A stretch of 16,668 nucleotides of DNA from an archaeon (GCA_024276795.1 JAJRWK010000032.1:1-16668); one strand, 5' to 3'. Counted from the stretch's first letter, positions 5,456 through 8,434 are shown. Numbers and translations: made by a program. The notes: generated by a model from the sequence alone, not told the origin.

Positions 5456-6973
5456 CTATTCGAGATGTAGCGCCTCCTTCAAGTAAAGCAGACGGTTTTG
5501 CACAACGCTGACAAACTCATCGTTGAAGGTCAAGAAGCCAGAATAACTCCCTCTTACGTCTCTGTACAAGACCAGTGCCACCCGAATTATTGGCAAATCG
5601 ATTACTGCAAAACGATACTCTGAAAGCGGAATCAAGCCTCGAGAAACATAAATGCCTCTCGAAGTCCGCAGATCGAGACTTTCATCCGGACCAAGCTCTA
5701 GGAATAGTTCTAGGGGAACTCCTTGATTTATGAGAGACATGAGACGATCCATCGCTGTTTTCAAACCCCGGGAATCTCCAATTCCAAGAGCCAATGGCCT
5801 AGGACGACCCGTTGAATAGTCATCAAAACTCCCTTGCTTCGCAAAATAGGTCGCCATTTCTTCCATAAAACGCATAAAAGCAAGAGAGGAAGCAACATCA
5901 AGAACGACTTTCCAGCTTTTCTCAGGGGTCTTCATGATTTCTGCAATTCTTTCTGAATCTAACTCTCTTATTGCGCTTCCGAGCTGAGTCAAAATATCAA
6001 TTACGTCAACTTCTACGGGAATATCGTTACGTTGCCTTTGAATGATCATTTGGAAAATCCCGGTTCCAGCGACTTGTTGGAATCTTGCTTGTGCCACTGG
6101 TAGGTCTAGTGAATAAATAAAACGGATCAATTCTCCAAGCGGTCCCTCCATACCAATTTGGGCAAGCTCAGATCGGATCATGGGAATAATTACTTGCTCC
6201 AAGCTAGGAATCAATTTTCGATAAATCAAACGAAGAACCTTGCTAAGAACTAATTCTGATCCTGCTTCAAAGAATTGGATAGCCTTTGCCGCATCAATCC
6301 TTGAAACAAAAGCCCACCATTCCTCTTCTTCTCCATAGGAAAAAGGATGAATCACGTGGAACCATTTTTGGTCTTGTGTTATGACGCGGACATTGACTTC
6401 GCTTAATTGGACATGCAAAAGATCAACAATATCCCTCCAAAAGAACTGCGAGTGCTGAAGAGCGCTGGCCTCCCGATGGTTAATCAATATGGGCCATCCC
6501 TCTGGAGTAGCGATTCCGATGAGGTCAATAAAGGGATATTTTTCCATGTATTCGTGAATAATCTGTTCAGCATGAGCCATTTCCCGAGGGTTCACAGGAA
6601 GTTTTTCACCTAGTAGGAGATCCAAGTCTCGTCTTAATGCCCTCAGTTCATGTTGTGCTGCCCCCTTTTCAATAATGAGCTCTTCTGACTCCTTTAGACG
6701 TTGCATGATTCTATTTAGAAGCCTACGTGCTCCATTTCTGCTTACGGTTTGACTACATCTGAGAGCTACGAGGAAGTCACCGTCTCGTAGATATTGAATA
6801 TAGGAAGTTTCTAATTCCTCCATGATGATGTTTTCGCCTGTTGCTTCAAGCCCTAAAGCATCTTGAGCAGCAATTCTTCCTGCTGATAACATATTGTCTG
6901 TTTTTGCTTCTCCAAGATGGATAATGGGTGCGCTCTTGTAGAGCACATAGAGCTCAAGAATATCCGAATGCAT
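5456..6973 (-). CDS. Hypothetical multi-domain protein with about three longin/roadblock-like modules
   Basis: 505 aa, ATG start. Module 1 (aa 1-95): ILELYVLYKSAPIIHL..MLSAGRIAAQDALG..YIQYLRDGDFLVALRCS..ARRLLNRIMQRLKE. Module 2 (aa ~125-245) has a roadblock/LC7-like order: AEQIIHEYMEKYPFIDLIGIATPEGWPILINH..FFWRDIVDLLHVQL..VRVITQDQKWFHVIHPF..WWAFVSRID..AIQFFEAG. Module 3 (C-terminus): LKTAMDRLMSLI..YRFAVIDLPIIRVALVLYRD..GFLTFNDEFVSVVQNRLLYLKEAL. It lies only 24 nt downstream of the preceding gene, and the spacer is purine-rich (AAAGGCGGGG). Confidence 0.8.
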   Translation of the reverse strand: MHSDILELYVLYKSAPIIHLGEAKTDNMLSAGRIAAQDALGLEATGENIIMEELETSYIQYLRDGDFLVALRCSQTVSRNGARRLLNRIMQRLKESEELIIEKGAAQHELRALRRDLDLLLGEKLPVNPREMAHAEQIIHEYMEKYPFIDLIGIATPEGWPILINHREASALQHSQFFWRDIVDLLHVQLSEVNVRVITQDQKWFHVIHPFSYGEEEEWWAFVSRIDAAKAIQFFEAGSELVLSKVLRLIYRKLIPSLEQVIIPMIRSELAQIGMEGPLGELIRFIYSLDLPVAQARFQQVAGTGIFQMIIQRQRNDIPVEVDVIDILTQLGSAIRELDSERIAEIMKTPEKSWKVVLDVASSLAFMRFMEEMATYFAKQGSFDDYSTGRPRPLALGIGDSRGLKTAMDRLMSLINQGVPLELFLELGPDESLDLRTSRGIYVSRGLIPLSEYRFAVIDLPIIRVALVLYRDVRGSYSGFLTFNDEFVSVVQNRLLYLKEALHLE

Positions 6974-6997
6974 GATTGCCCCGCCTTTTCATCTTAA

Positions 6998-8434
6998 TCA
7001 CGATATTGGAATGAGCCTTGCTAAGGGGTGTGGAATTATTTTTTTCAAGCACTCAAAGACCAGCACTCGATCGTCCTTTTCAATACTTTCCATGAGCGAT
7101 ATAAACGTTTGGCGTCTTTCGAGTAATTCTGTCAGCAATGCCATGGCTTTTGCAATGATTTGGTGTTGATGTGCTTCAAAGTAAATGCGGGCGTCCTGAG
7201 GGGGGAGCGAAAAGATCGGGCTCCATTTCATAATAAGCTCTCTCGAAAGACCTCTCAAACCCCCTCCGCGTACTGACCCAGTTGCTGGATCAACAATAAC
7301 TGCTCCATAACGAACGTAGTCCTCAATAAGAGAATCTGAAGGCGGAATGCCTACGATGTCACACTCGATCAAGGAATGAGAAAAAATCTCGAAATCCAGA
7401 TATGATGTTAGGGACGCCAAGGCAAGAAGAACTATACGAATATCACCAGGATTTCCCACAACTGCAATGGTTCTTTTTGTTGTTAGGGCTTGAATGACTG
7501 GTAACCATGCATTGCCAAGAATACGTCTTGTCAAATCAGGTGTTACATCATGACTGCGTGGGAGGAATCGATCTAATGTTGGGTCGTAAACCATTTGTAG
7601 CCCAAGACTTTGCCAGCGATCGATAAGGAGCGTTTTGAAATCAAGCCAGCGATCCAAATCATGATCTGATTCGAATCCTTGCAACGAGCTATTTGCTGAA
7701 CTTTTATTCAAAATCTTGTGTGCCAGTTCCTTGAGCTGGCTTCTCACACTAAGGATTGAAACTATGTGCATCGAAGGAAAAACCATTCCTAAGAGACGAA
7801 GATTAGGCTGAGAAATACCTACAATGTAGGCAAATACTTCTCTTTCACCTAAAGGAAGGAACCCATCAAACAATCCATGTTCTTCGAATTGATCCAAGTA
7901 GGGGGTTAGCAGATGTTCTAACTGATTTCGAATGTCGAAGGGTAGTTCTCGATCAATCCAAAAAGATTGATTCTCTTTAACTTCGAGGAAAAAGGGCTGA
8001 ACGCCTTTGATTTCCTCTGTCGGATAAAAAGTAGTCAGCACTTCTCTCACTAGTTCTTCGATTTCGGCAACAGATTTATCCCAGAAATCATAAACTTCGA
8101 ACCGGTTTTTGTTCATCTCATTTATGCGAGTGTCAACTTCTTCCTGAATAATGCTCAGGATTTCTGTTGCAAGTTCTTCGTCGCTCCCCTTATCCATTAC
8201 AAGAACGTAGATTATGTTTTCGTCAAAACTAGATCGCAACACCAAAGTATTAGCAGTCCCCATATTAAGCTGACTAATTTCCGAGCCGGAAATCTCGCTT
8301 GCAAATGATGTGATTGCGCTTAGGAAACCGGCGGCGAGATCAACGTTTTTGAAAGTGAAGCCACTGAAATGAAGATGTAGGACAGGAACTCCTCCATAAA
8401 TTACTAAAAAATCGCGGATATTCATAAGAACCAC
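6998..8434 (-). CDS. Hypothetical protein: two N-terminal longin/roadblock-like modules plus a C-terminal alpha/beta + helical region (DENN-core-like?)
   Basis: 478 aa. The start is GTG at 8434, or ATG three codons later at 8425. Module 1: DFLVIYGGVPVLHLHF..DLAAGFLSAITSFASEISG..ISQLNMGTANTLVLRSS..NIIYVLVMDKG..ELATEILSIIQEEVD. Module 2: FFLEVKENQSFWID..IRNQLEHLLTPYLDQF..FDGFLPLGEREVFAYIVGIS..LRLLGMVFPS..IVSILSVRSQLKELAHKIL. C-terminal: WLPVIQALTTKRTIAVVGNPGDIRIVLLALASLTSYL...IVGIPPSDSLIEDYVRYGAVIVDPATGSV, followed by a helical tail. Confidence 0.8.
   Translation of the reverse strand: MVLMNIRDFLVIYGGVPVLHLHFSGFTFKNVDLAAGFLSAITSFASEISGSEISQLNMGTANTLVLRSSFDENIIYVLVMDKGSDEELATEILSIIQEEVDTRINEMNKNRFEVYDFWDKSVAEIEELVREVLTTFYPTEEIKGVQPFFLEVKENQSFWIDRELPFDIRNQLEHLLTPYLDQFEEHGLFDGFLPLGEREVFAYIVGISQPNLRLLGMVFPSMHIVSILSVRSQLKELAHKILNKSSANSSLQGFESDHDLDRWLDFKTLLIDRWQSLGLQMVYDPTLDRFLPRSHDVTPDLTRRILGNAWLPVIQALTTKRTIAVVGNPGDIRIVLLALASLTSYLDFEIFSHSLIECDIVGIPPSDSLIEDYVRYGAVIVDPATGSVRGGGLRGLSRELIMKWSPIFSLPPQDARIYFEAHQHQIIAKAMALLTELLERRQTFISLMESIEKDDRVLVFECLKKIIPHPLARLIPIS

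Follow-up and report, generated by a model that had tools for sequence, protein, structure and literature searches.

A 16,668-nucleotide (nt) contig from a metagenome-assembled genome (MAG) of an Asgard archaeon, Candidatus Heimdallarchaeota (GCA_024276795.1, JAJRWK010000032.1:1-16668; here called the window), carries a tightly linked gene pair whose products, A and B, we propose to form a coupled longin heterodimer platform that regulates a Ras-superfamily GTPase. We put the probability of this reading at about 0.45; the dimer, its client and the direction of regulation, as guanine nucleotide exchange factor (GEF) or as GTPase-activating protein (GAP), are drawn by analogy with known systems. 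The longin domains of A and B would pair side by side, as do the first longin domains (LD1) of Mon1-Ccz1 and the roadblocks of MglB and LAMTOR dimers, and the resulting platform would bind and regulate a GTPase encoded elsewhere in the genome, acting either as an exchange factor, as the tri-longin domain (TLD) complexes do, or as a GAP. In TLD GEFs it is the two LD1 domains that make the GTPase-binding active site (PMC12383261). A first-pass annotation of the same DNA had taken it for archaeal, as the Heimdallarchaeota assignment bears out, and had read the pair as longin/roadblock regulators; this description suits B, which is nearest to Mon1-Ccz1-type TLD subunits, and not A, which is not shown to consist of repeated longin modules.

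Genes A and B are co-directional on the minus strand and in the same frame, with exactly 24 nt between them (Table 1), as had been reported. The 478 aa first given for A correspond to an in-frame GTG at 8434; the ATG that yields 475 aa is likelier, being the start that gives the length of the database copies, and it sets the first strand of A in register with that of B. Inspection of the 24-nt spacer agrees with its earlier description as purine-rich and free of a TATA-like box, and adds a Shine-Dalgarno-like GGCGGGG 5 nt ahead of the ATG of B. No terminator or promoter-like site was found on its minus strand in a scan for sigma-70 sites, which are not archaeal promoters. Together with the adjoining stop of A and start of B, the spacer is 100% invariant in five contigs from three lineages while the synonymous sites of the genes that flank it are saturated (synonymous divergence, dS, > 2.8), which argues for a constrained coupling element. 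Both proteins are under strong purifying selection, the ratio of nonsynonymous to synonymous divergence (dN/dS) being 0.018-0.021 for A (against two relatives) and 0.012 for B, with amino-acid changes in A about 2.4 times faster than in B. As judged from the sequence, the two genes are probably co-transcribed and translationally coupled via the spacer. The motif TTTTTAAA, in the intergenic region that separates A from a divergent ornithine carbamoyltransferase (OTCase) gene, is a possible archaeal TATA box of the A-B transcript. An apparent N-terminal frameshift of A at loci L004 and L005 was rejected as an artefact of a run of N in the scaffold.

Predicted architecture of protein B

B was modelled with AlphaFold2 from a 17-sequence family alignment, and secondary-structure elements were assigned with DSSP. 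The model is confident, with a mean predicted local distance difference test score (pLDDT) of 85.6 and a predicted TM-score (pTM) of 0.80. In it, the N-terminal domain (LD1) runs through E5-12, E15-21, H27-45, E51-53, E57-64, E67-74 and H79-95 (E, strand; H, helix), so that residues 5-103 are predicted to follow the strand-strand-helix-strand-strand-strand-helix order of the canonical longin fold. Across the B family the motifs MH..E, P16, AGRI and G-E-TGE of this domain are near-invariant, the individual columns being M1, H2, E7, P16, R33, G41, E43, T45, G46 and E47, and mean pairwise identity falls from 47% in LD1 to 30% in the second domain (LD2) and 16-25% in the rest.

A linker helix separates LD1 from LD2. 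In the tri-longin architecture of Mon1 and Ccz1, the third domain (LD3) is of the lamtor type, and the helix that completes it, alphaX, is placed between LD1 and LD2 (PMC8833172); from its position only, the helix of B may be the counterpart of alphaX. LD2 (H129-145, E149-155, E161-166, H178-190, E197-200, E204-212, E219-227 and H228-235) is of roadblock type, and the B model agrees with the roadblock/LC7 fold, a five-stranded antiparallel sheet flanked by helices, though the Pfam roadblock model gives no match. Beyond a helical hairpin, residues 293-505 read beta-beta-(beta)-alpha-alpha-beta-alpha-beta-alpha-beta and then beta-beta-beta-beta-alpha, and hhalign found no profile similarity of this C-terminal region to LD1 or LD2. 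On the evidence of the model, then, B is predicted to be a multi-domain longin/roadblock protein with a front half made of longin domain, linker helix and roadblock domain. A further copy of the starting module had been claimed for each protein; the predicted LD2 bears this out for B, the unusable model of A lends it nothing, and at the profile level hhalign detected no internal repeat in either sequence.

The B model was compared with the PDB by Foldseek, and the best 50 of 1155 matches (E <= 10) were listed. Ranks 1-20 are all TLD chains, namely Mon1, Ccz1, Fuzzy, Inturned, HPS1 and HPS4 from three different complexes, with E-values of 5.9e-9 to 2.6e-5, probabilities of 0.99-1.00 and 326-645 aligned columns. 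The likeness to Mon1 and Ccz1 that the first-pass annotation had suspected is seen in the ranking, if at low TM-scores. Among the matches listed, only TLD RabGEF subunits align to B across more than one domain. Next come chains of MglB, Asgard Roadblock3 and LAMTOR (E 6e-4 to 2e-3), whose target TM-scores are 0.45-0.74 and whose root-mean-square deviations (rmsd) are 2.5-5 Å, over a B domain that the output does not specify. Multi-PAS/GAF proteins (PpsR, phytochromes) are also found among the weaker matches, at E 4e-4 to 2e-3 and probabilities of 0.3-0.9. They would suit a reading in which A and B are not GTPase regulators at all and their longin/roadblock modules act as general scaffolds that bind proteins or ligands for signalling or the control of transcription, like PAS/GAF sensors. 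We consider this unlikely, since TLD subunits outrank the PAS/GAF proteins by 4-5 orders of magnitude, as well as in probability, and since the roadblock/longin platforms characterised in the literature are mostly GTPase regulators.

To judge from an exhaustive HMMER search with A and B concatenated as the query against 1.84 billion representative proteins, B has 15 further clusters, one of them its own at 94% identity and the others at 29-51%, mostly of 474-535 aa. The named members are all entered as 'hypothetical protein' and come from Heimdallarchaeota/Kariarchaeaceae MAGs, one of them from a Candidatus Kariarchaeaceae MAG. In the same search A returned its own cluster and one weak match to its N-terminal domain, P0020 (E 7.8e-4); the known sequences of A number three and are 86-100% identical. 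Pfam, its roadblock and longin models included, gave no match for A, B or six domain pieces (E <= 10), nor for the 17 aligned members of the B family. A and B were likewise without a hit in NCBIfam and PADLOC, and PDB sequence searches with single proteins and profiles of both gave nothing relevant. A word-indexed homolog search with the B-family alignment retrieved two proteins only, both already found, and a metagenome scan for more B loci yielded only two near-copies of an already known locus.

The N-terminal domain of protein A

The pairing proposed for A and B leans on their N-terminal domains. Residues 2-102 of A align with residues 4-102 of B LD1 (hhalign E 2.3e-6, probability 89%, 95 columns), A matches all B-family members in one register, and a hidden Markov model (HMM) of B LD1 run against 624 open reading frames (ORFs) from the window and 15 loci matched only B-family proteins and A. 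By these sequence comparisons the N-terminal longin domain is common to A and B by homology. The shared strand/helix pattern noticed earlier at the start of both proteins is therefore sound, by the confident model for B and by homology to B LD1 for A.

The closest relative of the A domain is not B LD1 but P0020, a protein of 302 aa (hhalign E 2.2e-9, probability 96%) that has a helix motif, GFLSAITSFASE, identical to that of A and shows no relation to A past residue ~134 of the latter. On our reading of the sequence, the C-terminal region of P0020 resembles a winged helix, which would suggest that longins of this subtype are present in transcription-factor-like proteins too, and which speaks for a scaffolding role in transcription.

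The remainder of A has been compared with folliculin. If A were a folliculin-like longin plus DENN protein, the proper comparison for the pair would be with FLCN-FNIP or SMCR8-C9orf72 and not with Mon1-Ccz1; FLCN-like longin+DENN proteins have been reported in Heimdallarchaea (preprint 10.1101/2020.10.19.343400), and residues ~318-385 of A show, by sequence reading and low-confidence DSSP, a beta-alpha-beta-beta-alpha-beta hydrophobic pattern followed by helices. The DENN resemblance of this segment was rejected, as A is at chance level against true folliculin residues 347-569: BLASTP aligned a non-co-linear 19-residue piece (E 0.024), hhalign gave a probability of 1.8%, the Smith-Waterman z of 2.0 was attained by 49 of 1000 shuffles, and a hand-picked co-linear segment of A reached z = 0.3. 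Neither a DENN nor a folliculin Pfam match for A appeared even at E <= 10. GAP-type longins carry a GP motif just before or at the start of beta2 (PMC12290439), and at this position both proteins have a conserved proline. The GP dipeptide itself is absent, however, with GGVP in A and S-V/A-P in the B family (G-A-P in P0005), where P16 is nearly invariant; GGVP at that site lends the folliculin comparison some colour. Taken together, we regard a folliculin-type A as very improbable.

Table 1. Features of the A-B locus, in window coordinates
Feature	Coordinates	Strand	Remarks
Gene A	6998..8425	minus	475 aa from ATG at 8425; lineage-restricted protein
A residues 1-107, N-terminal longin-type domain	8105..8425	minus	homologous to B LD1 and to the P0020 N terminus
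A residues 108-475	7001..8104	minus	low-confidence secondary structure: alpha/beta modules, then C-terminal helices
A-B spacer	6974..6997	minus	sense sequence TTAAGATGAAAAGGCGGGGCAATC; purine-rich
Gene B	5456..6973	minus	505 aa; unannotated ~500-aa Heimdallarchaeial family
B LD1, longin domain	6659..6973	minus	DSSP of model; most conserved part of the family
B residues 107-120, linker helix LD1-LD2	6614..6655	minus	H107-120 in model
B LD2, roadblock-type domain	6269..6589	minus	DSSP of model
B residues 239-287, helical hairpin between halves	6113..6259	minus	H239-272 and H277-287 in model
B residues 293-505, C-terminal alpha/beta region, two modules	5459..6097	minus	least conserved, 16-20% mean identity
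Intergenic region to divergent OTCase gene	8435..8573	.	contains TTTTTAAA at 8482-8489 (minus strand)

Conservation of the pair and the search for a linked GTPase

A number of results weigh against a heterodimeric GTPase-regulatory platform of the TLD kind. The TM-scores of B against TLD chains are 0.16-0.29, with rmsd of 16-30 Å, so the domain order agrees and the rigid-body (global) arrangement does not; the gain in E-value over the single-domain matches fits about two matched domains, not three, and nothing in the C-terminal half of the B model can be recognised as an LD3 of the lamtor type. Neither A nor B has detectable sequence homology to TLD subunits, as judged with the Pfam models that cover Mon1, Ccz1, Fuzzy and Inturned and with PDB sequences. 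The AlphaFold2 model of A is unusable (pLDDT 36, pTM 0.23); Foldseek with it gave no significant match (best E 0.023), and the longin/roadblock complex subunits that recur among its weak matches were given no weight. Outside LD1, A and B showed no similarity in local, alternative-alignment, global or domain-by-domain hhalign comparisons, or when an A-profile HMM was run against each B member. Full-length paralogy of the two proteins, which was considered, is not demonstrable, the similarity being confined to LD1.

To these are added the distribution of A and the missing GTPase. Three close lineages share the gene order OTCase, A, B, luciferase-like gene. In a more distant relative, whose B ortholog is 53% identical, B directly adjoins the OTCase gene (L001 3159-4091; 8574-9497, plus strand and divergent to A-B, in the window), with neither A nor an A remnant at the syntenic site; the OTCase-B synteny is accordingly older than the A-B pair. 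A is confined to one narrow clade, and elsewhere B genes have no A neighbour: those of the distant members lie beside PrpD, TFIIE/response regulators, a Toprim-domain protein, SIR2/chemotaxis genes and TauE, and the HMM search of the window and 15 loci described above revealed no second longin-type gene near other B-family genes. This bears on a condition under which the first-pass annotation would have given up its reading, namely that the two genes fail to co-occur in other genomes, and A-B as a conserved two-subunit system is not supported. Because A evolves faster than B, its ortholog in the 53% lineage would by our estimate be about 20-25% identical, and one located at another site of the same genome might not have been detected.

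Such a distribution invites a reading in which B works without A, either as a homodimer or with a B-family paralog as the true Mon1/Ccz1 analogue, A being a recent lineage-specific accessory that docks via its longin domain or modulates B. Besides the 15 B-family clusters set against one narrow clade of A, B genes occur unpaired in six further types of neighbourhood, and the faster evolution of A would be in keeping with an accessory. Moreover, one Heimdallarchaeota MAG holds two unlinked B paralogs that are about 35% identical, P0024 (KAR35_11610; P0012 cluster) and P0018 (KAR35_02320), and in each of two samples there are two B subfamilies, P0005 and P0016 in ERZ27262658 and the L006 pair and P0007 in ERZ23495147. 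These paralogs make B-B pairing a live alternative, and the heterodimer that is generally formed could be a pair of B paralogs and not A-B. Where A is present, on the other hand, the invariant spacer and the purifying selection on A in three lineages indicate that it is made with B and matters; the common LD1 homology is what a pairing partner would require, and the A ortholog of the 53% genome could have been missed. On balance we judge it somewhat unlikely that B dispenses with A.

A Ras-superfamily GTPase gene in the flanks, a possibility raised by the first-pass annotation, did not materialise: a search for P-loop, DxxG and NKxD motifs found no Ras-superfamily or P-loop GTPase in the window (six frames) or in 13 related loci. 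The want of a linked GTPase gene at any locus searched would fit a scaffold outside GTPase control, as would the location of some B-family genes beside response-regulator or chemotaxis genes. It is weak evidence, since in the Asgard strain MK-D1 operons do not generally combine small GTPase genes with those for roadblock, longin or TRAPPC3 proteins (PMC10933270), so that missing linkage says little. With these points counted on both sides, the coupled A-B platform acting on a GTPase encoded elsewhere is the reading we carry forward.

Several further genes of the window were recorded. A luciferase-like monooxygenase gene (4484-5398, minus strand) follows B in the same direction after a gap of 57 nt and may share its transcript; it is kept in the three close lineages and not in the 53% relative. 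In the relative without A, an IS200/IS605-type pair (Y1 transposase and OrfB HTH; L001 1766-2793, L002 1741-2768) lies just past the OTCase gene, pointing to a rearrangement-prone spot beside the locus. Two membrane proteins, at 275-2413 (plus strand; residues ~500-640) and 9817-11070 (minus strand; residues ~285-417), have cytoplasmic ends that read as longin-like, with the segments ALIIVDRRTGYAVFTHKF...LIAGILHAYGAFDQEITGG and EMFIIDESGTAYFHGLI...AIIAIASLVSELSG; one of the two proteins has a single transmembrane helix after a large N-terminal region and the other has multiple transmembrane helices. Against the LD1 profiles of A and B these segments score E 0.005-0.04 (hhalign probability 1-7%), and against P0020 E 0.002 (probability 15%), a weak and unproven resemblance. 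Next to the multiple-transmembrane protein with the longin-like tail are two adjacent small proteins, at 11171-11935 and 11984-12784 (both minus strand): the latter encodes a winged-helix domain (HTH_45, scoring at the Pfam threshold), and the product of the former matches an AAA-associated C-terminal domain only faintly, with a C terminus that reads like a winged helix. A ParA/MinD-type P-loop ATPase gene (14454-15272, plus strand; AAA_31, E 7e-14) is convergent with 15276-16304 (minus strand), which encodes a 342-aa protein whose N terminus has a HEAT repeat and whose lysine-rich C-terminal part resembles a coiled coil; in L004 the ATPase gene is retained, and an ORF occupies the HEAT-repeat gene's position. 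Finally, there are tRNA genes at 3531-3626 and 9511-9601 (both minus strand; Rfam 49 and 60 bits). ARAGORN reads the first as tRNA-Arg(TCG) and leaves the second, with a 4-base anticodon, without assignment; their lengths, 96 and 91 nt, suggest archaeal tRNA introns.

Relation to known longin and roadblock regulators

The TLD, or 'HerMon', RabGEF subunits (Mon1-Ccz1, Fuzzy-Inturned/CPLANE and HPS1-HPS4/BLOC-3) are of the same size as A and B, at ~400-570 residues. The predicted model of B agrees with them element by element in the order of LD1 longin, linker helix and roadblock-type LD2, and the module that forms the TLD active site, LD1, is likewise the best-conserved one in the B family. Two adjacent genes whose products have a common LD1 fold also recall the obligate TLD heterodimer, in which paralogous subunits pair through LD1-LD1 and LD3-LD3 sheets and bind the Rab GTPase at the LD1-LD1 face. 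The differences are that no lamtor LD3 can be recognised in the C-terminal half of B, that A has only LD1 in common with B, and that the A-B pair is limited to one narrow clade. To our knowledge, moreover, no endolysosomal system has been demonstrated in the archaeal host, unlike the hosts of the TLD RabGEFs. We have kept B outside the TLD family, since no sequence homology to it was detected and an LD3, the heterodimer and GEF activity are at most putative; on the model, B is built like the front two-thirds of a TLD subunit and may work like it.

Other longin heterodimers share less with the pair. FLCN-FNIP and SMCR8-C9orf72 are alike in the N-terminal longin, in the logic of a heterodimer of relatives and in having Heimdallarchaeial relatives; they differ in that no DENN-containing structure is found among the best 50 of 1155 Foldseek matches of B and in that the DENN resemblance of A was statistically rejected; nor was an arginine finger recognised. 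MglB, LAMTOR2-5, Asgard Roadblock3 (9jue) and the Thor roadblock (7f8m) are dimeric GTPase platforms that match B at the domain level. MglB/LAMTOR-type proteins are single domains of ~120 residues, however, and mostly homodimers, whereas in B a single chain is predicted to join a longin domain, a roadblock domain and ~270 more residues. P0020-type Asgard proteins have the longin-type domain of A and a different C-terminal region.

Asgard archaea are described in the literature as rich in roadblock/longin proteins and small GTPases, with folliculin-like longin-DENN proteins, NPRL2-like longins and GTPase fusions. In the part of the literature covered here, no Mon1/Ccz1-like or tri-longin architecture is reported from Asgard archaea or any prokaryote. 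Common ancestry of the B family (A being its diverged partner in this clade) with the eukaryotic TLD RabGEFs would mean that Heimdall-group archaea had the longin-alphaX-roadblock core of Mon1-Ccz1, BLOC-3 and CPLANE, and its dimeric, GTPase-activating use, before eukaryogenesis; we hold this to be improbable on present evidence.

Tri-longin RabGEFs switch on Rab7, Rab32/38 and Rab23 and thereby define late endosomes, lysosome-related organelles and cilia. The B family would offer a concrete, clonable candidate for asking whether this type of Rab activator predates eukaryotes, and A, through the coupling we infer, would be a co-expressed partner that has the catalytic-type domain in common with B. 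Should the resemblance instead reflect a convergent fusion of common Asgard modules, the B family would still be a new, uncharacterised multi-longin family. As it stands, the A-B pair hints at, without proving, an archaeal forerunner of the Mon1/Ccz1 GTPase regulators.

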